A stretch of 64,000 nucleotides of DNA from Cyanobium sp. (GCA_044359075.1 JBIKMU010000011.1:7306-71305), one strand, 5' to 3'; counted from the stretch's first letter, positions 6,108-40,302 are shown. The notes: generated by a model not told the origin, from the sequence alone. Translations and numbers: made by a program.

Positions 6108-6278
6108 GTTCTGCCGAGTCCGGTGCAAGAAATCGAGCTTGCTCTCTGGTCATTGTCCGCAGCGCCGTACAACACTTGGAAACCTGCGCAGGGGTAAGGG
6201 GGCCCAGCTGAGGCCCCTACGAGTAACTGCTTGCTGAAGTGCCTTGAAGCTAAAGCATTTGCTGCAGGAATCTTTAGG

Positions 6279-6365
6279 CCATAACGCTCCAGATCAGAAG
6301 CGGGCATAGCAGCATATCTTAGTTAAGCATCCTTCGCACCCGCCTTCTGCATCTGGATGTTAGGC
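6279..6365 (-). mobile_element. attC-like site A (87 bp)
   Basis: Minus strand: GCCTAAC-5nt-GAT[G]CAGAA[G]GCGGG ... CCCGCTTCTGATC-6nt-GTTATGG; inverted arms with two extrahelical bases. Confidence 0.8.
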
Positions 6366-6603
6366 GCTGATCATCAGCCAGAGTGCCCTCGGCAACGCTC
6401 TTTACAAGTCATAAGAAATAGTTGCCATTTCACTGAGTGTGACACTCCAACCATTCGAAGCTTTCAAGCTGCTGTCCGCAGGTTGACAACCCAATCAGTA
6501 AAACCCAGCGATCTTACGCAGGGTGCCTGTGGCATAGAAAATGTACTGAGACATAAGGCTACCTACTCTAGTGGTTTCAATGGGCGGAATGAACAGAGTC
6601 AGG

Positions 6604-9516
6604 TTATATCTTTACTTCTCGTCTCCGACGATTGAGCGCCTCTAAAAGAAGATTAAAGGATTCATCATCTAGTCCGCAACGCAGATCAAGACATGCGTAG
6701 CTTCGCAGGAATGGCGGCATATTGTCAAGAATTCCATTTGGAAGCAGTACAGGAATTATCTGCTGGCTCCTTTCATCCCGTTTAATCAGAATTGCATCCA
6801 ATTCTGTTTTCATCCACTCCCCGGGTAGAGATTGGCCAATGCATACCAAGTACGATGAAGCAGATTCCACTGCATCTCTTAATGATCGATTGATAGAATC
6901 ACCTGGCTTGAGTTGCCATTGGTCAAACCAAACACGAAAACCTGAATCTGTTAACTTTTCGACGAGAGTCCGCACAAAAGCTTTATCTTGATAACTATAA
7001 GAAACAAAAATATCGAAACGCGCATTTGCAGTTATTTTTAATGCCTCCACATGCCGTCCGGTCGATTGCAAAAGAACTACCAGATTGTTTTTTATGCGGG
7101 TAGCCACCGGGGTGTCACGCCCCAAAGTATAGTCAAGAATATCAAGCGCGCGTCGCAGCATCACCTCAGCTTCATCAATACGTTTGACCTCCATGTAAGT
7201 TTCCGCAAGGCTATTTAGTTGCAAAACGACTGGGGCTGACTGAAGACCGTTGGAACTCTGGGCTTCATCAAGTGCTTTATTATATAAAAGAATAGCCTCT
7301 TCACTGCGGCCAGATTCCCTGTAAAGGCCCGCGAGGTTGTTGTATGCAGCAATGACCGTTGGATCACCAGGCCGACCGGATGTTTCTGCCATACTTAGCG
7401 CACGTCGATACCACTCGGCTGCCTCATCGCTACGTCCCATTTCGCGGTAAAGACCTGCCAGATTGTTGTATGCAGCAATGACCGCTGGGTCACCATGCCG
7501 ACCGGATGATTCTGCCATACTTAGCGCACGTCGATACCACTCGGCTGCCTCATCGCTACGACCCAGTTCGCGGTAAAGACCTGCCAGATTGTTGTATGCA
7601 GCAATGACCGCTGGGTCACCAGGCCGACCGGATGCTTCTGCCATACTTAGCGCACGTCGATACCACTCGGCTGCCTCATCGCTACGACCCATTTCGCGGT
7701 AAAGACCTGCCAGATTGTTGTATGCAGCAATGACCGCTGGGTCACCAGGCCGCCCGGACGTTTCTGCCATACTTAGCGCACGTCGATACCACTCGGCTGC
7801 CTCATCGCTACGACCCATTTCTCGGAAGAGACCTGCCAGATTGTTGTATGTGGCAATGACAGCTGGGTCACCAGACCGCCCGGACATGTCTGCCATACTT
7901 ATACTTAGCGCACGTCGATACCACTCAGCGGCCTCATCGCTACGACCCATTTCTCGGTAAAGACCTGCCAGATTGTTGTATGTGGCAATGACCGCTGGGT
8001 CACCAGGCCGCCCGGACATTTCTGCCATACTGAGCGCACGTCGATACCACTCAGCAGCCTCATCGCTTCGCCCCATTTCTCGGTAAAGACCTGCCAGATT
8101 GTTGTATGTGGCAATAACCGCTGGATCACCATTCTTCTCGGTCGTCTCCGCCATCTTGAGGGCACGAAGATACCAGTCAATTGCTTCATTTCCTCGGCCC
8201 GTTTGGCGGCATGCGTTGGCTAGCTGACTGTAGATTCCTAATAGCTCAAGTGGTTCAGAGACAGATCCTATTTCTACGATTTGTCGAAAAAGGGACTCCG
8301 CCTCGCTCAACCGCCCGCTTGTCATGAGCAACTCAGCAAGATGATTCATGCTCGATCGCACCATGGGATGGCTCAGTCCTAAAGAATCGATGCTGATAGC
8401 AAGCGCTCTTCGCAAATATGTTTCAGCTAGTCCAAAACGCTGTTGACGCAGCAAGGAGACCCCGGCCTCTGTTAACAGATCAGAGAACTTGGGCGAAACA
8501 CCTATCTCTGTTTCGATATCCACCATTAATCGCTCGATGGCCTGTTCGTCAAGTGGCAAAGAGGCGAGTGTAGAGCGTAAGTCAGCAATAGCGCCCAAAC
8601 GTTCAGCGCTTTCAGGAGAAATGATCTTCTGCACGTCTTGAAAATCGCTCACCAAGAGCCTAGTTACGTTCTCCAAATAAAAACCTGGGAACTCCGGGTC
8701 GGTCGTGCCTTGCGAAATTACCGGCAGCGGCTCTCCAAAACTAAACTTAGTTATGTATGGAATCTTCGTCAGTTCAAGAATAAGACGGGATTCGATTCCT
8801 TTTGGTAGCCATTCGTCATAGAATGGTTTTAGTCCCTGAGCAAATCGTTGCAGCCAAGCTTGTGCTTCATCTACTTCATCTCTTCCGTCAAACCGGCCAG
8901 GAAGTGGAAGTACCGCAATAGGTGGCCTAGGAACTGCCAAGTGCCGCCTTGCCTCTTGAACTCCGTTAGCAATCTGCACGCCCCTTTCAAAACTCTGCTC
9001 ATTCGCAGAGAAGACTAGAACCAAGATATCTGGCAAATAGATAGTACAGACTCCACCTGTATCCGTGATGCCCGTTCGGCTATCAATCAACACATAGTCA
9101 TATCGTCTCTTCCATTCGGCTCTCCAGCGATTCAACAAATCTCCACCCGCATAATCTTCAAAGAATCTGTTCCAATCAAAACTCCGGACTCGCTCGATAT
9201 AGCCGGGAGCTTGATCTCCGCTAGCAATCAGATCGATAGGCTCGCAATCAGAAATGAGCACTTGACTGACATATGATGACCAATCAACAACTGAATTGGT
9301 CTCAACGCTGTTAAGAAGGTGGATGAGGCCTTCCGACTTCGGCACAGCATTGTGTAAGTAGGGCTTAAAATAGCGGTGCAAACCTGGGGCTTCTAAATCC
9401 CAATCCATAAGTAGTACACGCTTTCCTCGTTTAGCGAGAAGCACCGCTATATTTGCTAGGGCGAAGGTTCGTCCTACTCCGCCCTTATACGAATAGAATG
9501 TGATGATGCGGCTCAT
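6604..9516 (-). CDS. ParA/MinD-like KGGVGRT ATPase - TPR array - TIR domain fusion (970 aa)
   Basis: ITFYSYKGGVGRT, LLMDWDLEAPGL, LIDSRTG; 42-aa TPRs; C-terminal FDIFVSYS..WFDQWQLKPGD..EWMKTEL TIR; ATG at 9516 overlaps the upstream stop (ATGA). Confidence 0.88.
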   Translation of the reverse strand: MSRIITFYSYKGGVGRTFALANIAVLLAKRGKRVLLMDWDLEAPGLHRYFKPYLHNAVPKSEGLIHLLNSVETNSVVDWSSYVSQVLISDCEPIDLIASGDQAPGYIERVRSFDWNRFFEDYAGGDLLNRWRAEWKRRYDYVLIDSRTGITDTGGVCTIYLPDILVLVFSANEQSFERGVQIANGVQEARRHLAVPRPPIAVLPLPGRFDGRDEVDEAQAWLQRFAQGLKPFYDEWLPKGIESRLILELTKIPYITKFSFGEPLPVISQGTTDPEFPGFYLENVTRLLVSDFQDVQKIISPESAERLGAIADLRSTLASLPLDEQAIERLMVDIETEIGVSPKFSDLLTEAGVSLLRQQRFGLAETYLRRALAISIDSLGLSHPMVRSSMNHLAELLMTSGRLSEAESLFRQIVEIGSVSEPLELLGIYSQLANACRQTGRGNEAIDWYLRALKMAETTEKNGDPAVIATYNNLAGLYREMGRSDEAAEWYRRALSMAEMSGRPGDPAVIATYNNLAGLYREMGRSDEAAEWYRRALSISMADMSGRSGDPAVIATYNNLAGLFREMGRSDEAAEWYRRALSMAETSGRPGDPAVIAAYNNLAGLYREMGRSDEAAEWYRRALSMAEASGRPGDPAVIAAYNNLAGLYRELGRSDEAAEWYRRALSMAESSGRHGDPAVIAAYNNLAGLYREMGRSDEAAEWYRRALSMAETSGRPGDPTVIAAYNNLAGLYRESGRSEEAILLYNKALDEAQSSNGLQSAPVVLQLNSLAETYMEVKRIDEAEVMLRRALDILDYTLGRDTPVATRIKNNLVVLLQSTGRHVEALKITANARFDIFVSYSYQDKAFVRTLVEKLTDSGFRVWFDQWQLKPGDSINRSLRDAVESASSYLVCIGQSLPGEWMKTELDAILIKRDERSQQIIPVLLPNGILDNMPPFLRSYACLDLRCGLDDESFNLLLEALNRRRREVKI
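7300..8130 (-). repeat. intragenic array of about 7 near-identical 126-bp TPR-coding repeats
   Basis: Unit GRPGDPAVIAAYNNLAGLYREMGRSDEAAEWYRRALSMAETS; one unit has a 6-bp duplication (atacttatactt near 7895). Confidence 0.95.
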
Positions 9517-10136
9517 GGAATTGGCAGGACAAGTGATGGAACAGTGTTCTGAGATTGCATGCGGATCTTGAATAAACCTTCGAATTGCGTGTGTGCTACT
9601 TGCTCCCACGCGGGATCGAAGGCTGGTGATGCAGCCAGTGCTTGTTCAATCGAGACACAAAGTTTACCTTTCAGCACTTCAGCCATGGCCTCCTGCTTCG
9701 GGCTGTCTGGTCGCATGAAAGGGTTGGCGAATGAGTGAAGCTGCTCTCCCTGCATCGCCTGCACCTCAGGTGGAAAACAATCCCCGTCATCTATCACAAC
9801 AGGGAAGATAAGCCCCCTCGGGTTTTCGGCTGTTCTCAGATTGACTGTCTTCTCACGGTGACGCATTAGCGCTAGCTCTAGTCTGCACCAATCGCTTTGG
9901 AAGTACTCTCGGCTCAAAACGGCAACCATTATGCGGGAACGAGAAAGACTCATGGCGAGGTGATTGGGCCACGAAGCTCCGTCATCAATCGTCTCGTCCA
10001 CGAATACATTTACCTGACCCAAGCGCACCCGCAGCAACGATGTCAAAGCTCGGACGAAATTCTCCCGCGTCCAGCGCACCCAGTCGATATCAGAGCGTCT
10101 GTAGCTGATGAAGATGTCATTTTCATAGTCGGACAT
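9513..10136 (-). CDS. standalone TIR-domain protein (207 aa)
   Basis: DIFISYRRSD, VFVDETIDDGASW, LSREYFQSDWCRLEL (catalytic-type Glu present), LIFPVV. Confidence 0.88.
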   Translation of the reverse strand: MSDYENDIFISYRRSDIDWVRWTRENFVRALTSLLRVRLGQVNVFVDETIDDGASWPNHLAMSLSRSRIMVAVLSREYFQSDWCRLELALMRHREKTVNLRTAENPRGLIFPVVIDDGDCFPPEVQAMQGEQLHSFANPFMRPDSPKQEAMAEVLKGKLCVSIEQALAASPAFDPAWEQVAHTQFEGLFKIRMQSQNTVPSLVLPIP

Positions 10137-10692
10137 AATGCTGTTGCTGCTGATTACGAAACTCTTGAACTGGTTGAGAGGGCATTCTGCCACGGAGTCC
10201 GGCCATGCCGTGGGGCGCGAGGTGATTGACTATGTTACATTGCTACACAGCCACTTAATCCAATCTATAGAAATTAACACTCCGACTTTGGTAGTATTTA
10301 GTCTATTTTCAACCACCAGAGAAATCCTCAAGAAATTCACCCCCGAATGACAAGAATAAGGAAAACGCGCGATAGCTCTCAATAATACAGCAGGGGCATT
10401 ATGCCTGCGCCTAGCATAGGGAATCTTTGCAAGGCGTATAAAGAGACACTGATTGCAATAGTGAGTTCCGTACTAAGAAAGCCGCTCTTTAGTCAATACT
10501 GAAGGAGTTCAGCATGAAGCTTGCTGATATGGCCGATGCAGAAGAAATGACAACCTAGAAAAGATGTCATTGATTGATCAGATTAGCTGAAGATACGCCT
10601 GCATTAAGCTTGATTCTCATTATAGACCCAAGCGGCAGAGGGCGATGATTTTCACTATTTTCTCGGTGGGCGGTCCGCCTTTGTCATCAAGT

Positions 10693-10798
10693 GCCCAACG
10701 CCCGTGCTGTGCCTTTTCGTGGACGAGGCGTGATCGCTGCTCTTCATCCGCAGCATCCATGCCGCAGCCGTGAAATAAGCACCTGTACTTCGTTGGGC
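10693..10798 (-). mobile_element. attC-like site B (106 bp)
   Basis: Perfect inverted termini GCCCAAC/GTTGGGC, 5- and 6-nt spacers, imperfect arms with bulged C and T on the + strand hairpin; begins 7 nt after the stop at 10806. Confidence 0.72.
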
Positions 10799-10805
10799 TT
10801 CCGGT

Positions 10806-11432
10806 TCATTTTTTCCGCACCAGAGCTTCAAAGCTTTTTCTGTCCAATTGAGCAAAATGCTTGCTGTTGCGAATTGATTCGGGCAGATGTTCCCAGATGC
10901 CATTTTCTTTCAGCCAATGATTGAGACATCCAAGGAAGACGTTTTGGACGCTCCAAGCATCATCCTGCAGATCGTGCAAGAAGGTGTTTAGATTCTCAAT
11001 CCGCTCTTTGCTCTCGAGACCATGCTCCGCAGTGGTGAACATGTTGTGGACAAACGTGTTCCGTTTCTGAAGGAAACCAACTAAAATCTGATCAAACTGT
11101 GGGTGCAACTGCGAGGTCTTCCGGACTTCGTGAAGAAGTTGTCCAAGCGTCCGCTTGTTCTTGGACATGTCCTTTCCCGATAGGTCATCGAACGTGAAAT
11201 CGGTCGTTTCGCGGAGGATGAACTGAATGGCCATTTTGATGGCGTGCTCGGCCATCTGGATCATGTAGAGGGTGGCACCGATTTCCTGAAATGCCTTGTG
11301 CTGCATCGGGGTCAAGTCAGGGTAGATAGAGTAGTCCCATGGTGCTTTGCCGGTTTCGTCCTTCTTTTGCGGATCGTGACGGGTCTTCAATATCCGGATG
11401 GAGTCATGATCAAGTTGTGGCTTGTCGGTCAT
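10806..11432 (-). CDS. putative HEPN-like domain protein (gene cassette)
   Basis: IG..YMIQMAEHAIK, RTLGQLL and RNTFVH (Rx4H) motifs; ATG 9 nt after the GTTGGGC core of site C. Confidence 0.6.
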   Translation of the reverse strand: MTDKPQLDHDSIRILKTRHDPQKKDETGKAPWDYSIYPDLTPMQHKAFQEIGATLYMIQMAEHAIKMAIQFILRETTDFTFDDLSGKDMSKNKRTLGQLLHEVRKTSQLHPQFDQILVGFLQKRNTFVHNMFTTAEHGLESKERIENLNTFLHDLQDDAWSVQNVFLGCLNHWLKENGIWEHLPESIRNSKHFAQLDRKSFEALVRKK

Positions 11433-11441
11433 GTTGATTGA

Positions 11442-11528
11442 GCCCAACGCTCAAGATCAGAACCGAGCATGTGGCGATGGCACATGACAGGAACTGAAGC
11501 TCCCGTCTTCTGCATCAGGATGTTAGAT
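11442..11528 (-). mobile_element. attC-like site C (87 bp)
   Basis: Minus strand: ATCTAAC (contains the TAA stop of the upstream ORF)-5nt-GAT[G]CAGAA ... TTCTGATC-6nt-GTTGGGC; same L boxes as site A. Confidence 0.82.
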
Positions 11529-11993
11529 CTCACCGCGATGACCTTTGGTGATCTGCTTTTCGGCGTAACCGGCGTCATATATGGCGAGCAATCTGATTTG
11601 ATTCAATCGAGCGATCCTGGCCTCAATCGTCGCGGGGTCTGTGGCAACGCGATCGCCCCGCTCAAAGGCGATGGATATGGCTTCCATTGCTTGAATTTGC
11701 TTCCAGATTTCATTATAGTCCTTCTCCATGCGACTACAAGTTGCTTCATAAGCCTCGAGCATTGCATGCGATTCGCTGTCGGATGTGTCAATAAAATTCT
11801 TGACTTGGTCGATGCTGTCGGCCAATTCATTCTTAGTCTGCTGGCATGCTACAAGCGCCTCGCCGAGACGGCGCGCAAGATCCGTTCGGTGTTGTCGTCT
11901 CAGATTTAAGAAAGTTTCAACTCTCGTCCAGCCGCTCACAAGGAACGCCAAGATTGAAATTGCAAGGCCCCATTCTGCTGTTGTCATCGTCAT
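11523..11993 (-). CDS. hypothetical protein with N-terminal TM anchor and helical body (gene cassette)
   Basis: 156-aa ORF, WGLAISILAFLVSGW hydrophobic helix; stop inside the attC inverse core. Confidence 0.65.
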   Translation of the reverse strand: MTMTTAEWGLAISILAFLVSGWTRVETFLNLRRQHRTDLARRLGEALVACQQTKNELADSIDQVKNFIDTSDSESHAMLEAYEATCSRMEKDYNEIWKQIQAMEAISIAFERGDRVATDPATIEARIARLNQIRLLAIYDAGYAEKQITKGHRGEI

Positions 11994-12611
11994 CAGCTGA
12001 GTTCTGCCATGTGAGCCCCAACATAGAATATGCGGACTCGCATATCATGAGCAATCCGGCGATTGCTGCATATCCCACAGGAACTTGATATCTTTGATGC
12101 TTTGAGAGCCAAGGCTATGGCAGACATCCTAGGGAATCGATCTGGTTCGGCGGAGTATATGCTGGTTCAGTCTATCACGCTTCAACCACGCCTTGCAGGC
12201 CTTGTCTAGCGAGGACCAGGGGAAGCCGAGCTATGGGTATTGTTTGGATCTAGAGATAAGCCAAAGCTATTATCTGCATGAAGATAGATTATTCGTTTTG
12301 TGCCTTCACTAGTCTTAGCTGTGCACTTCCTGCAATAGCTTATAGGAGCAATTTTTGCGATTCTTGTTTATCTATTCTACTTGTTCAGCGAAGCAGGGTG
12401 TGCGCACTTGCCAAGTGCCCTCGATTCCCCAGGCGGCGAATAAGATAGCAATCCAATCAATATCAACACCAACAATTCCTTGATTTGAACCAACTTGCCA
12501 GCTGAAATTTGATCACAACTCCCGCTGACAACAAAGTTGCATATTAGACACAAACGATCCCCAATGACTTAGGATTATACTGAAATTATCTCCACAACCC
12601 AGGCTCAGCCA

Positions 12612-13724
12612 ATGACCATGCAAGCAGCCGTTCAAGCCTATTACGGCCAAGAACTGAGCAGCAGCGCTGATCTCAAGACCACAGCCTGCTGCGATGCCGA
12701 TGCTGTGCCTGCCTGGCTGAGGCCCCTGCTGGCCAAAGTGCATCCAGAGGTAACTAGCCGTTATTACGGCTGCGGCCTGGTCTGCCCAGCCCAGCTCAGT
12801 GGCTGCCGCATCCTTGATTTGGGCAGTGGTTCCGGCCGCGATGCCTACCTTTTGTCCCAACTTGTCGGGCCCGGGGGCTCCATCGTCGGTGTCGACATGA
12901 CGGTTGAACAACTTGCCATTGCCCGTCAATACACCGAATTCCATGCCCAGCAGTTCGGCTACGCCAATGTCTCCTTCCTGAATGGCACCATCGAGAAGCT
13001 CGCAGATTTAGACCTGGAGCCGGAAAGCTTCGATGTGATCATCTCCAATTGTGTGCTCAACCTCTCCACCGACAAGGCCGCAGTGCTCAAAGGTGTGCAG
13101 CGCTTGCTTAAGCCTGGGGGTGAATTTTACTTCGCCGATGTCTACACAGATCGGCGCCTGCCCGATGCCCTGCGCAGTCATCCCGTGCTTTACGGCGAGT
13201 GCCTGGGGGGCGCCCTTTACTGGCAGGACTTCCTGCGCATGGCCAGATCAGCGGGTTTCCCGGATCCCCGTCTGGTCAGTAATCACCCCATCAGCATCAC
13301 CGATGCAAAACTGGCGCCCCTAGTGGGCCTGGCCCGCTTCGAATCAACCACCTATCGGCTATTCAAAATCAACGGCCTGGAAGAGGCATGCGAAGACTAC
13401 GGCCAAGCCGTGATCTATCGCGGCACGCTGCCGCAGCACCCCGATCGCTTCCCCCTGGACCACCACCATGTCCTCGAAACGGGCAGGACTTTGCCGGTGT
13501 GTGGCAACACCTATCGCCTGCTCCACCAAAGCCGCTTCCACGAGCACTTTGACTTCATTGGCGACTTCAGCCGCCACTTCGGACCCTTCCCGGGTTGCGG
13601 CAGCCTCTCACCCTTTAAAAATCCGGCACCAGGAGCCGCAGCCACAGACCCAGCCCCAACACCGGCCGCAACTCCCACACCGACACCAGCCCCAGCACCG
13701 GCACCGGCATCCTCCTGTTGCTGA
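12612..13724 (+). CDS. arsenite methyltransferase-like (ArsM/AS3MT family) SAM methyltransferase
   Basis: TTACC, RYYGCG, LDLGSGSGRD, ISNCVLNL, LYGECLGGA, C-terminal CC. Confidence 0.8.
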   Translation: MTMQAAVQAYYGQELSSSADLKTTACCDADAVPAWLRPLLAKVHPEVTSRYYGCGLVCPAQLSGCRILDLGSGSGRDAYLLSQLVGPGGSIVGVDMTVEQLAIARQYTEFHAQQFGYANVSFLNGTIEKLADLDLEPESFDVIISNCVLNLSTDKAAVLKGVQRLLKPGGEFYFADVYTDRRLPDALRSHPVLYGECLGGALYWQDFLRMARSAGFPDPRLVSNHPISITDAKLAPLVGLARFESTTYRLFKINGLEEACEDYGQAVIYRGTLPQHPDRFPLDHHHVLETGRTLPVCGNTYRLLHQSRFHEHFDFIGDFSRHFGPFPGCGSLSPFKNPAPGAAATDPAPTPAATPTPTPAPAPAPASSCC

Positions 13725-34625: not shown

Positions 34626-36239
34626 ATGGCAACCGATGCCGCGTCACTCAGGTTAGAAATACAACAAGCAGAAGGCGGATTTGTTAACGCCAATGAAAAC
34701 AGCGACCCAAGTTTAGTAATCCAATCCATTACGACTCTTGGAAAAATATGTTATGATCCTCTTGTTCCTGACAGCACTTATACTGTAGCAGGCTTAACTG
34801 GCAATGCTGCAGCAACAACTATTCTTGATACACGCGTATTTGCCCAAAATTCAGATGCCTATTCGCCTCTCCAGGTTTTAAACTTAACATTACAATATAC
34901 ATCATCAACAACTAATAATACTCCCATATTTAGATCTACTTTGGGTGGCGACAGTATGATGCCAATTAAGTTAGATACTTTAAAATTTACTGGCCAGCAT
35001 GGTGGTTGGACGGGAAATGGTAACACCTATATGTCTTTGTCTTCATTTAAAGCTGCAGATAGTTCTCCCACAAGCAATATTTATTTTACTTTAAACAATT
35101 CTATGATAGATGTAACAGGACAAGCCAATTTTAATTCTACCACTGGCGCTGGTGGCGCGGCTTTTATACAAAGCTGGAATAATTCAGGCACTACCTCTCT
35201 TACAACTAATATTATCGACGAAAGCGGTTTTCAAAGCTCATTTCACTTTGCATCTCAGATCACTAACACAGGAGGAGGTTCACAACATGGTATGTACTTG
35301 ATTAGTGGCAATAATTTTAACCGAGCGTCCAAAGTAGCTTCCTCTGGACTTACTGATCAAAGTCTTTTTAGAGCCAGGGGTAACCGTCTTGAAAATGTAA
35401 ATGCTACTGTCACTGGTAATACATTTAGACAGGGTTCATACTTGGATTTATACGGAGACGTATCAAATATTACTGTTTCAGGTGGCAATACTTTTAGTAC
35501 CATTTACGGAACAACACCAACTTCTCCAACATCACCATCTTGTGGTATTAGATTCAACAAAACATCTTCCTCCGGTGCAACTCTTTCTGGCACTTCAGGC
35601 ATATCCACCAAAGTAACAGGCAATATATTCAATGGCACTGGTTTAGCCATTGTTAATAACGACTCAACAGCCAATTCAATTATAGCTATAAATAGTACTA
35701 GCACTAATACTGTTAGACTCGGTACTTCAACACCTTCTATATTTCAAACATTTAGGAATATGTACGCTGCTGGAAAAGGTGCTGACACCATGAACTACAG
35801 CAGCTCCACCACTACTAATTGGATCAGCGGAGATCAAGGTAATGATACTATTACGGGTGGAACTGTAAACGATTACATTATTGGCGGAGTTGGTTCTGAT
35901 ACCATTTCAACTGGAACTGGTACTGATACAGTAATATATTACAATCCAAACGAGGGAGGTGACACCATCGCCACTGGAGGCTTTACCGCAGCCAGCGATA
36001 AACTCGCCTTCTTAAGCTCGAACTTTGGAGGTATTACAAGTCTGACTCTAAATACGAATTTCTTCACCGGTGCTCCCCCATCAATTTCAGGCACTTCTCC
36101 CCTATTCTTCTACAATACAACTACTGGGGTTTTGACTTATGATTCTAATGGCGTTAGTGCCGGCGGAGATACAGTAATTGCAACCTTTGCTGGTACACCA
36201 CCAATTCTTGGCGTTACTAATTTTCAATTTTTCTCCTAA
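34626..36239 (+). CDS. low-GC Ser/Thr/Asn-rich protein with RTX-like Ca-binding C-terminus (putative T1SS substrate), paralog 1
   Basis: GDQGNDTITGG, GGVGSDTISTGTGTDT repeats; no signal peptide; clear similarity to 38245-40302. Confidence 0.75.
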   Translation: MATDAASLRLEIQQAEGGFVNANENSDPSLVIQSITTLGKICYDPLVPDSTYTVAGLTGNAAATTILDTRVFAQNSDAYSPLQVLNLTLQYTSSTTNNTPIFRSTLGGDSMMPIKLDTLKFTGQHGGWTGNGNTYMSLSSFKAADSSPTSNIYFTLNNSMIDVTGQANFNSTTGAGGAAFIQSWNNSGTTSLTTNIIDESGFQSSFHFASQITNTGGGSQHGMYLISGNNFNRASKVASSGLTDQSLFRARGNRLENVNATVTGNTFRQGSYLDLYGDVSNITVSGGNTFSTIYGTTPTSPTSPSCGIRFNKTSSSGATLSGTSGISTKVTGNIFNGTGLAIVNNDSTANSIIAINSTSTNTVRLGTSTPSIFQTFRNMYAAGKGADTMNYSSSTTTNWISGDQGNDTITGGTVNDYIIGGVGSDTISTGTGTDTVIYYNPNEGGDTIATGGFTAASDKLAFLSSNFGGITSLTLNTNFFTGAPPSISGTSPLFFYNTTTGVLTYDSNGVSAGGDTVIATFAGTPPILGVTNFQFFS

Positions 36240-38244: not shown

Positions 38245-40302
38245 ATGGCCAACGCCGCTACCAGCACCGAACTCAGGACACTCATCCAAAACGCAAACAT
38301 ATTAGATCCCATAATAAATCTAACCGCTTTAACGCCAAATGTTTACAGTGTTACCACTCTAGCGTAAACACCAAGCAATAGTTCTCAGCCGGCAGTTCCA
38401 TTCAGTGGCTATACAATTCAAAGCAGCGTGGCGCTATCTCCACCCGCACAGGGGGCTAGTACAGCTGCCGCATTAACAAGAGAATTTTCTAACACCCGCA
38501 TTTACCAGCAGAATATAGATGGCCCCTATTCTCCAGGTCTTATCAAAGATGTTGAGCTAATTTATTCAACAGGTAACGACGCTCTGCTTAGTGCCACAAC
38601 TGGTAACTTCGCCCTAAGTAATGTTAGATTTACCGGAAATCACATTGGCTGGGCCGGGAATGGCAATAAATATATTTCCTTGACTTCCTTTAATGCGGCA
38701 ACTCCCCTAAACGTTCCTCTTTCGCTCACCAATGTATCAGTCACGATTAGCGGACAAAATGGATTCGATGGAACCAACGGCGGTTCGGCTTTCCTGCATA
38801 GCTGGAATAACAGTGGTGCTGTATCGATTAAGAATAGCAGCTTTGATGAGTCCGGGTTTGCAAGTACCCTGAACCTCCTTGGTACGGGTGCATTACCCTC
38901 AGGCAACTATACCATAACCAACAACTCCTTCAATCGTACCACTAATGCCCTTAACCGCACAGTACGGCCTTCAGGCAACAGGCTGCAAAACGTTAATGCC
39001 ACCCTGAGTAACAACATATTAACGCAAGGTTCTTACCTTGACCTCTACGGAAATATCTCGGGGATCACGCTCACAAGCAACACATTCACCACCATCACCA
39101 ATGGTTACGGTATACGTATCACCTCCCCCAACACCGGCGCGGCACCAACACTTTCGGGAACCAACGTGTTCACTGGGGCCGGTCTGGCATTAAAATACGT
39201 TAATGCGACTGCCAATACGTCTTACACCCTTACAACAGGCGGCACCATAACCGTTGGCGGAAGCACCTTTGTCAACCTCATCGCAGGTGGCCAGAGTGAT
39301 GATGTGATTTCAGGAACTGCCAACGTCGCCGACTGGATCAATGGCGATGATGGCAATGACAGCATCAGCGGCTTCGCCGGCAATGATTTCATTCTGGGTG
39401 GAGCCGGAAACGACACCATCGAAGGAGGACTAGGTGGCGACACCCTCAATGGAGGCACCGGAACCGATACCCTTTCCTATGCCAGTTCCAGCGCAGCAGT
39501 AACCGTAGATATAGGGGCGAATACTGCAAGTGGGGGAGATGCGCAAAGCGATGTCATATCACTCTTTGAAAATCTCATCGGCAGTGCCTATGCAGACACT
39601 CTGACTGGTAGTTCTGCTGCAAACATCCTCACGGGAGGAGCAGGTGCGGACAACATGAATGGGGGCATCGGAAATGACACCCTGGATGGCGGACTTGACA
39701 ATGACACCCTAGATGGAGGAGCTAACAATGATAGCTTGATAGGCGGTGTTGGCCTGGACTCACTCCTTGGCGGTACTGGCAATGACACCCTGGATGGCGG
39801 ACTTGACAATGACACCCTGGATGGCGGAGATGGCGCTGATAGCTTGATAGGTGGCGCTGGCCTGGACTCACTCCTTGGTGGTATTGGCAATGACACCATG
39901 GATGGCGGAGATGCTATTGACACCTTGGATGGCGGAGATGACGGTGACTTCCTCTATGGTGATCTTGGCAATGACACTCTGACTGGTGGCAATGGTAACG
40001 ACCGTTTTTACTTTAACACTGCCCTCAATGCTTCCACCAATTTGGACACCATCACTGACTTCAAGGCAGGGGGTGCCACTGACAGAATCTTTCTCTCATC
40101 TACTATTTTCACCGGGCTTGTAATCGGCACCCTGGCTGTCGCCGATTTTGGAACTTCAGCGGCTGTAGGGGCAGACGTGGTGGCTAGCGGCGGAGGTCTT
40201 TACTTCTTGTCTGGAGGATCGGCAAATCTCGGTGATTACACTCAGTTCGCCACTCTCACGGGCTCACCAACAGTTGCTAGAACGGATTTCGTTGTGTTCT
40301 GA
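38245..40302 (+). CDS. RTX Ca-binding protein, paralog 2; in-frame TAA at 38365 separates the N-terminal 40 codons from the 624-codon remainder (possible pseudogene or restart at 38428)
   Basis: Many GGxGxDxL nonapeptides; core shared with paralog 1; frame is continuous across the stop. Confidence 0.75.

Follow-up and report, generated by a model that had tools for sequence, protein, structure and literature searches.

This analysis concerns a pair of overlapping genes in a 64,000-nt stretch of DNA from Cyanobium sp. (GCA_044359075.1 JBIKMU010000011.1:7306-71305). The whole stretch is referred to here as the window, and positions are counted from its first letter (Table 1). Gene 1 encodes a stand-alone TIR protein of 207 amino acids (aa). 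Gene 2 encodes a 970-aa protein in which a ParA/Soj/MinD-fold module of the KGGVGR type is followed by an array of tetratricopeptide repeats (TPRs) and a C-terminal TIR. An initial annotation had described these two genes and their ATGA overlap, the motifs KGGVGRT, LIDSRTG, DWCRLEL and EWMKTEL, and a glutamate retained in each of the two TIRs. Open reading frame (ORF) calls and the sequence itself bore out all of these points, placing the two glutamates at E87 (DWCRLEL) and E905 (EWMKTEL). The view that the genes form a real two-gene TIR module with translational coupling also held.

Table 1. Features of the gene pair and of the block that carries it, in window positions
Feature	Position	Strand	Basis
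Gene 1, stand-alone TIR, short-form FxsC-like partner, 207 aa	9513..10136	-	ORF, ATG start, TIR_2, FxsC_Nterm
Catalytic Glu87 of gene 1, WCRL-E-L motif	9876..9878	-	kept in 78/78 partners; aligns with plant TIR Glu
Gene 1 C-terminal extension: two helices (aa 146-195) and tail (aa 196-207)	9516..9701	-	AlphaFold2, conservation
ATGA stop/start overlap, gene 1 to gene 2	9513..9516	-	sequence; plus strand reads TCAT
Gene 2, KGGVGR-ATPase/TPR/TIR, 970 aa	6604..9516	-	ORF, ATG start, domain matches
ParA/Soj/MinD-fold module, KGGVGR type, ~300 aa	8617..9516	-	NF047398, AlphaFold2, Foldseek
Deviant Walker A KGGVGRT, aa 11-17; signature Lys11 kept, P-loop Lys replaced by Arg16	9466..9486	-	sequence
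Switch-I-like DWDLEAPG; D38, D40 and E42 invariant	9382..9405	-	alignment A1; MinD D38/D40
Walker B LIDSRTG, aa 143-149; D145, R147, T148 and G149 invariant	9070..9090	-	alignment
TPR array, TPR_12/TPR_10 type, 42-aa units	7042..8445	-	Pfam
Tandem TPR units, nearly identical (92% at the DNA level), 6.4 copies of 126 nt	7321..8131	-	TRF, repeat search
C-terminal TIR of gene 2; Glu905 at 6802-6804	6607..7041	-	TIR_2 3.9e-24
Strain-specific low-GC block: the pair and two unrelated orphan ORFs	6108..12530		GC profile, island-free relatives

Identical 207-aa and 970-aa products were called on two independent freshwater metagenome contigs by their own gene callers. Parts of both genes were covered by short contigs from four lake-water metatranscriptomes, and two metatranscriptome contigs (9407-9557 and 9479-9629) spanned the junction between them. 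These contigs are compatible with low-level co-transcription of the two genes. A promoter and terminator scan of the island that carries the pair gave signals at or below chance.

The association of the two genes is a property of a large family. When 1.84 billion cluster representatives were scanned exhaustively, the ATPase module was found in 2,730 of them at E<=1e-30 and in 6,614 at E<=1e-10, and at least 4,003 word-indexed homologues of the ~300-aa module were found; the module was almost always N-terminal in its protein. A scan with one genome per species yielded at least 591 module loci, and the phyla among the loci listed included Actinomycetota, Bacteroidota, Acidobacteriota, Planctomycetota, Chloroflexota, Pseudomonadota, Myxococcota and others. 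Pairing was counted in 80 genome loci kept from these and surveyed with purpose-built profile hidden Markov models. A same-strand TIR ORF ended at the start of the ATPase gene in 77 of the 80. The commonest junction, seen in 24 of the 77 as well as in the window, was the 4-nt overlap, and most others lay between -19 and +10 nt. All 78 partner TIRs matched FxsC_Nterm. Both marks of the cassette were present in the window, namely an abutting same-strand TIR upstream and a partner of the FxsC_Nterm type with the invariant glutamate. Pairwise distances in the ATPase module correlated with those in the partner (r = 0.83, Mantel p < 0.0005), and therefore the two genes are inherited as a unit. This mirror-tree result reports co-inheritance rather than contact, as physical interaction and linkage are inseparable by it.

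The loci fell into a short class and a long class. The short class comprised 56 loci, with partners of 190-215 aa as in the window, and no third gene was conserved across these loci. The long class comprised 21 loci, mostly from actinomycetes, with partners of 390-490 aa (FxsC_Cterm in 19) and ATPase proteins of ~1,300 aa. What follows the module was found to vary widely. In 78 relatives the domains after it were TIR_2 (39), TPR_12 (22), CATASP (17), NB-ARC (13), NACHT (6), nSTAND1 (4) and TPR-S (4), and half of these proteins had no repeats at all, being ATPase-TIR only. The ParA-like module therefore appears, from these architectures, to be the constant companion of the upstream TIR, at the N-terminal spot where NLRs carry an effector or adaptor domain. 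Because it often precedes NB-ARC, NACHT or nSTAND1, it is no substitute for a STAND NTPase.

Gene 1 carries the sequence signature of an enzymatic, NAD+-cleaving (NADase) TIR, with E87 in a WxxxE context. The position of E87 was the only fully invariant residue among the 78 upstream partner TIRs. Gene 1 matched Pfam TIR_2 at 5e-16 and FxsC_Nterm (NF040588) with 49.5 bits (4.5e-13), below the curated cut-off of 130 bits. Its AlphaFold2 model (predicted local distance difference test, pLDDT, 86.4) consisted of a TIR core at aa 1-135, two long helices and a disordered tail. The nearest solved structures in a Foldseek search were the enzymatic plant NLR TIRs RPS4, L7, RUN1 and RPP1, together with AbTir and SPARTA. 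The tail (QNTVPSLVLPIP) showed a conserved pattern, Q.TVPSL.LP, although it was disordered in the model, and P200 within it was nearly invariant (partner alignments A6 and A3). Short partner peptides bind the dimer interface of ParA/MinD proteins, and by this analogy the C-terminal extension of gene 1 may be a docking element for a ParA-like dimer. The TIR of gene 1 had no detectable similarity to that of gene 2 past the first strand.

The N-terminus of gene 2 matched Pfam AAA_31/CbiA/ParA and scored 146.9 bits over aa 3-177 with the AAA_KGGVGR model (NCBIfam NF047398), above its cut-off of 90. An AlphaFold model of aa 1-339, built with 38 homologues, had a pLDDT of 90.3 and a predicted template modelling score (pTM) of 0.85, and displayed the complete Soj/ParA/MinD fold. 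Its top Protein Data Bank matches by Foldseek were Soj, ParA, MinD and FlhG, with template modelling (TM) scores of 0.75-0.81 on the target and sequence identities of 15-20%; no solved structure was found within the KGGVGR-module clade itself. When the residues of MinD were mapped onto the module, K11 (aligned with MinD K11), T17, D38, D40 and D145 proved invariant or nearly so. The sole altered residue of the MinD-type nucleotide site was K16, which is Arg throughout the family (115 of 115 homologues). Because K11, T17, the D38/D40 pair and D145 are kept and the Arg is family-wide, the site looks altered on purpose, not decayed.

Lys-to-Arg swaps in P-loop enzymes typically preserve nucleotide binding and cripple hydrolysis. 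In view of this general effect and of the invariant P-loop Arg, the module would be a nucleotide-bound latch, a dimeriser or a ligand site, and not a cycling ATPase. Two proteins of the family (P0261 and P0046) have two KGG-type ATPase modules in tandem, with the motifs KGGVSRT and KGGAGRS, in an arrangement that resembles the ArsA-like pseudo-dimer. Judged by their domain order, these tandem proteins would be compatible with a dimeric working unit, and together with the retained D38, D40 and D145 they give an indirect hint of ATP-dependent dimerisation and partner-stimulated hydrolysis of the ParA/MinD kind. A PHROGs search gave a generic ParA match only for the pair.

The remainder of gene 2 contains about 11 TPR units (TPR_12, 2.5e-85) and the fused TIR, and a domain search detected no STAND NTPase (NB-ARC, NACHT or similar) in it. 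The fused TIR also has the sequence context of an enzymatic TIR (E905 within WxxxE), and this glutamate was kept in 82 of 107 family members, the window's included. The ATPase-TPR-TIR layout recurs in the closest relatives, which are 824-932 aa long. Identity of these to gene 2 was 60-77% in the ATPase module, 28-51% in the TPRs and 33-57% in the fused TIR, and in the two close relatives for which both genes were compared the partner TIR was 72-77% identical. Among close relatives, the TPR array diverges faster than the ATPase module. A variant from another lake (L091:2140-4800) had a gene 2 that was shorter by exactly 84 aa, or two TPR units, with 0 substitutions outside the missing segment. 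The difference is either a copy-number polymorphism of the TPRs or a collapse in short-read assembly.

Several family members departed from the common two-gene form. In about 20 loci from Amycolatopsis, Lentzea and Saccharothrix (L019-L054, Pseudonocardiaceae; e.g., L042:7989-13403), the ATPase protein ends in CATASP, the next gene encodes a conserved protein of ~1,185 aa with AAA_16 and HerA-like (DUF87) ATPase regions, and a weak, divergent TIR-like ORF is often found upstream. Such loci possibly represent an expanded form of the cassette with more genes. Natural fusions of the partner TIR to the ATPase were also considered. One candidate (P0030), on a 2-kb Logan contig, was rejected, as its junction and C-terminus were frame-shifted relative to the window proteins, and it is a probable indel artefact. 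The status of a similar protein (P0346), which is a fragment, as a TIR-ATPase fusion is uncertain. A third (P0337) is a complete TIR-ATPase-TIR single chain whose N-terminal TIR is not of the partner type. In Nitrosomonas sp. Is35 (L083:10621-13275) and in a second locus (L084), a TGG-to-TGA nonsense mutation was found at the invariant Trp39 of DWDLEAPG. As this mutation was seen both in the NCBI genome and in an independent Logan assembly, the Nitrosomonas ATPase gene is probably a real pseudogene.

The nearest curated families of the pair are FxsC and FxsT of the actinobacterial FxSxx-COOH locus. The two share the gene order, in which a TIR-like gene stands directly upstream of a KGGVGR-ATPase protein with TPRs, and true Fxs loci appeared among the more distant matches of the ATPase module. 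The kinship to FxsC/FxsT proposed earlier was confirmed by the FxsC_Nterm matches of all 78 partners and by the identity of the long-form loci as true Fxs systems. At one of these (L065), FxsT scored 922 bits and an FxsB radical SAM/SPASM maturase (575 bits) was found upstream. In comparison, gene 2 reached 274.7 bits with the FxsT equivalog FxSxx_TPR (NF040586), a TPR-driven score below the cut-off of 300, and it lacks the NB-ARC-type region of the long class and ends in a TIR instead. Gene 1 gave no match to the FxsC C-terminal domain (TIGR04276). Neither the island nor its neighbours held a radical SAM gene by ORF calls and domain search. A search of the 64 kb for FxSxx-COOH precursors returned only two chance ORFs, neither of them credible: one runs within gene 2 on the opposite strand and lacks a Met, and the other lies 20 kb off. 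The absence of an adjacent precursor peptide or radical SAM gene had been noted from the sequence, and these ORF, domain and peptide searches agreed with it, as they did with a stand-alone two-gene form that has neither FxsA nor FxsB. Because every feature that identifies an Fxs system failed to appear, the pair is a stand-alone sister form and not an Fxs system, and it is most likely a stripped-down relative of the actinobacterial FxsC/FxsT genes.

The pair sits on a horizontally acquired island. The block that contains it is 6.4 kb long and has a GC content of ~50%, in a genome of ~68-70% GC. The insertion site was compared in 80 related metagenome loci, in most of which an ABC permease is directly followed by a DUF1400 hydrolase. 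In the closest island-free relatives (L097 and L100, with a permease 96% identical), the permease is followed by 89 nt and a methyltransferase; the insert is lacking in relatives that are 96-97% identical. Alignment placed the left junction of the island at the stop codon of the permease and the right junction ~80-90 nt upstream of the start of the methyltransferase. A sister strain (L096, permease 98% identical) carries a different insert of ~50% GC at the same point (L096:3127-12123), with a 2,310-aa SpvB/FG-GAP/RHS/PT-HINT/Endonuclease_NS_2 polymorphic toxin and an IS1595 transposase fragment. Because of this RHS toxin insert, the site is a variable hotspot for conflict genes. No tRNA, integrase or convincing flanking repeat was found on the island, and two-copy repeats of 28 nt and 17 nt are likely due to chance.

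Other genes in and around the island were also noted. Two orphan ORFs on the insert, at 10806-11447 (-; 213 aa) and 11523-11993 (-; 156 aa), had no Pfam, NCBIfam or PADLOC family and no PHROGs match, and gave only weak PD-T4-6 and spanin-like matches; both were covered by metatranscriptome contigs. They were rejected as parts of the system, being absent beside the pair in every other locus. The gene bordering the island at 12612-13724 (+) encodes an ArsM-like SAM methyltransferase whose tail is rich in Pro, Ala and Thr and ends in SSCC. It is missing from most of the more distant relatives, in which the permease abuts the DUF1400 gene, and may have entered the same hotspot earlier. Further away, low-GC patches (47-51%) at 34626-36239 (+) and 38428-40302 (+) encode RTX (HemolysinCabind) repeat proteins and are probably separate horizontally acquired genes.

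The cassette has spread widely, and partner proteins 68-81% identical to gene 1 were found in Nitrosomonas, Aliiroseovarius and Xanthobacteraceae. Seven annotated contexts, including the window, were sampled for their neighbouring genes. In Aliiroseovarius, the pair is accompanied by ThsB_TIR, a DNA methylase, nSTAND1-WD40, further TIR proteins and a transposase; in Adonisia by CHAT-TPR, an RHS protein and a reverse transcriptase fragment; and in a third context (L177) by TIR-NACHT and CHAT-TPR. In Nitrosomonas and in one other context (L178), it is a lone insert with housekeeping genes around it, and in another (L086) IS21 is nearby. Surroundings of defence genes, as expected from the initial annotation, were seen in three of the seven contexts, where the pair stands beside ThsB, TIR-NACHT, CHAT-TPR or nSTAND genes, and the window's own island occupies a conflict-gene hotspot.

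Taken together, these results lead us to favour, with modest confidence, the reading that the pair is a stand-alone, horizontally mobile TIR conflict module that acts in anti-phage defence or abortive infection. The conserved core would be a catalytically competent FxsC-like TIR, encoded by gene 1, and the ParA/Soj-fold domain of the KGGVGR type at the N-terminus of gene 2. The latter may bind nucleotide and form a sandwich dimer like those of ParA and MinD. Because its P-loop Lys is Arg, it would hydrolyse poorly and might serve as a latch or an assembly platform rather than as a cycling motor. Input would come through the fast-evolving TPR array, which may bind an invader protein or keep the protein auto-inhibited; its divergence relative to the core and the possible two-unit difference in copy number between populations would suit a sensor. 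Upon activation, the ParA-like dimer would gather the fused C-terminal TIRs together with recruited partner TIRs, the latter perhaps through the conserved C-terminal helices and tail of gene 1. The assembled TIRs would then cleave NAD+, and either depletion or a signal derived from ADP-ribose (ADPR) could stop growth.

Several observations weigh against this defence assignment. The metatranscriptome depth was very low, and carry-over of DNA is possible. The mirror-tree correlation was 0.89 for the fused TIR, so that the signal for the partner is no stronger than that for a domain of the same chain. The near-identical TPR units suit a recent amplification better than a diversified recognition surface. 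Three to four of the seven contexts are lone inserts amid housekeeping genes (the window, Nitrosomonas and L178) or lie near an insertion sequence (L086). None of 50,697 phage records contained the module, and only 9 of 72,556 plasmid records did. The Nitrosomonas ATPase gene carries its nonsense mutation beside an intact upstream partner TIR. A literature search found no experiment on any family member and no functional study of KGGVGR, PDC-M28, FxsC/FxsT or ParA-like plus TIR defence. Furthermore, the passages on the MinD/ParA-like domain in Kaur et al. 2020 (PMC7159879) predict it to be inactive. The NLR-like two-gene defence system envisaged by the initial annotation was accordingly retained in part: the TIR module, its stand-alone nature and its island context stood, and the notion of a STAND substitute and the claim of novelty did not. 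A ParA-family switch in place of a STAND NTPase is not a description that suits the family, which often has both. Novelty had been overstated, as NCBIfam already includes a curated model of the module, hundreds of species possess the cassette, and close relatives show the same ATPase-TPR-TIR layout.

Three other explanations were weighed. Signalling of the Thoeris kind, which we consider unlikely, would have the gene 1 TIR sense the invader and make an ADPR-derived nucleotide, with the KGGVGR pocket as the receptor whose binding of the signal dimerises the module and activates the fused TIR or another C-terminal effector. The layout, in which a small TIR gene neighbours the gene of a larger protein with an N-terminal nucleotide-binding domain, is like that of ThsB/ThsA, and the strong conservation of a pocket with a family-wide Lys-to-Arg change would be unexpected in a simple ATPase. 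In half of the family the protein is just ATPase-TIR without sensor repeats, and therefore something else must sense the invader in those members. However, every residue with which MinD and Soj bind Mg-ATP is kept in the module, among them the signature Lys that contacts the ATP phosphates across the dimer, and many relatives carry STAND and TPR sensors downstream of the module, which suits sensing in cis better. No SLOG, Macro, SAVED or CARF signal-binding domain was found by domain search. As for sequence kinship, 37 of the 78 partner TIRs weakly matched ThsB or ThcB4 of type III Thoeris (E<=1e-3), but the models remained far under their cut-offs, with ThcB4 giving 21.5 bits against 220 and ThsB giving E-values of only 1e-3.

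A non-immune role derived from Fxs appears still less probable. In that case the pair would be a regulatory or scaffolding unit for the maturation of a ribosomally synthesized and post-translationally modified peptide (RiPP), for signalling or for development, and the window copy would be a remnant or a repurposed one. The proximity to FxsC and FxsT set out above speaks for such a role, as does the embedding of the actinomycete long-form pair with the FxsB maturase. Yet FxsB, a credible FxsA and the FxsC C-terminal domain are all missing from the window and its island, 56 of the 80 loci are short-form with no maturase among the conserved neighbour-gene clusters identified around them, and an FxsB-type upstream ORF is confined to long-class loci. 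The invariant catalytic glutamate and the strain-specific island at a toxin and defence hotspot also argue against it, and in the relevant passages of Kaur et al. 2020 (PMC7159879) the Fxs peptide systems are themselves interpreted as adjuncts of conflict systems. We regard as similarly improbable an addiction (toxin-antitoxin-like) or selfish module that merely stabilises the island, in which one TIR would be the toxin and the ATPase-TPR protein its regulator, with no anti-phage role. The tight operon with overlapping stop and start, the mobile strain-specific insert, the wide horizontal spread and the lone inserts amid housekeeping genes in several genomes would all suit it. Nevertheless, no integrase, transposase or replication gene was found on the insert, a 970-aa multi-domain repeat protein is atypical as an antitoxin, the module is rare on plasmids, and its recurrent fusion to STAND sensors suggests regulated sensing.

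It is possible, and put forward here only tentatively, that the KGGVGR ParA-fold domain is a new immune coupling module. It would be either a nucleotide-latched dimeriser, with practically no hydrolysis, that recruits a dedicated TIR enzyme by way of the conserved C-terminal helices and tail of the TIR, or a receptor for a nucleotide product of that TIR. TIR enzymes under the control of an NTPase and a repeat sensor are central to bacterial, plant and animal immunity. Here the constant partner of the TIR is not a STAND NTPase but a ParA/MinD-fold domain with a fixed Lys-to-Arg P-loop, in a cassette that is present in hundreds of species of at least seven phyla and is already annotated. If such coupling operates, one cassette of TIR plus latch would serve TPR, NB-ARC, NACHT, nSTAND, Fxs and CATASP/HerA-like partners as a heterotypic adaptor, with a role comparable to that of Death-fold or EAD adaptors, and the FxSxx-COOH "RiPP" locus would be recast as an immune system built around the cassette. 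A working mechanism would add a regulatory principle to TIR immunity and explain the annotated FxsC/FxsT genes. For picocyanobacteria, which are key primary producers in fresh water, it would also define a phage-defence locus at a variable hotspot whose position is mapped. If the pair is merely another NAD-depleting abortive-infection system, the gain would be modest, amounting to one more entry in the catalogue of defences.

Compared to ParA, Soj and MinD, the module shares the fold and keeps the signature Lys, the Thr of the P-loop, both switch-I Asp residues and the Asp of Walker B. It differs in the absence of the canonical P-loop Lys, in its low sequence identity, in its fusion to immune-type domains and in having no ParB, MinE or MinC partner. 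By our reading, the same divergent SIMIBI domain is the "inactive MinD/ParA-like domain" that Kaur, Burroughs, Iyer and Aravind (eLife 2020; PMC7159879) described in conflict systems and stand-alone FxSxx peptide systems. The passages concerned place it in systems of multicellular bacteria rich in TIR, TPR and AP-ATPase domains, which are read there as immunity or apoptosis-like, and count it among the many domains found in the effector regions of VMAP ternary and peptide-processing systems. Neither the invariable presence of a TIR gene upstream, nor a two-gene form that stands alone, nor a fusion of ATPase, TPRs and TIR is described in those passages, and the window differs from VMAP systems in having no vWA-MoxR genes.

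Among catalogued systems, a PADLOC search found none with a name that matches the pair, and the one candidate match was partial. PDC-M28B matched the window module at 5e-24 and all 38 modules tested, over profile positions 130-306 of 438. PDC-M28A had no match among the window proteins or the 78 partners, and PDC-S66 was matched by the TIRs over the TIR core only. PDC-M28 and PDC-S66 are themselves only candidate systems in PADLOC. Thoeris likewise has a small stand-alone TIR gene next to one for a larger protein with an N-terminal nucleotide-binding domain. Compared to Thoeris, however, the pair has no SIR2, SLOG or Macro ThsA, its gene order and coupling differ, and gene 2 has a TIR of its own. 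Avs/NLR-like STAND and TIR-STAND-TPR proteins follow the same logic, in which an NTP-binding domain is combined with an array of repeats and a TIR as effector, whereas gene 2 lacks a STAND NTPase and carries its TIR on the C-terminal side of the repeats, and a separate second TIR is obligatory. The nearest experimental precedent is E. coli TIR-II, a protein composed of TIR and TPR that defends E. coli (Wang et al. 2024; PMC11350192).

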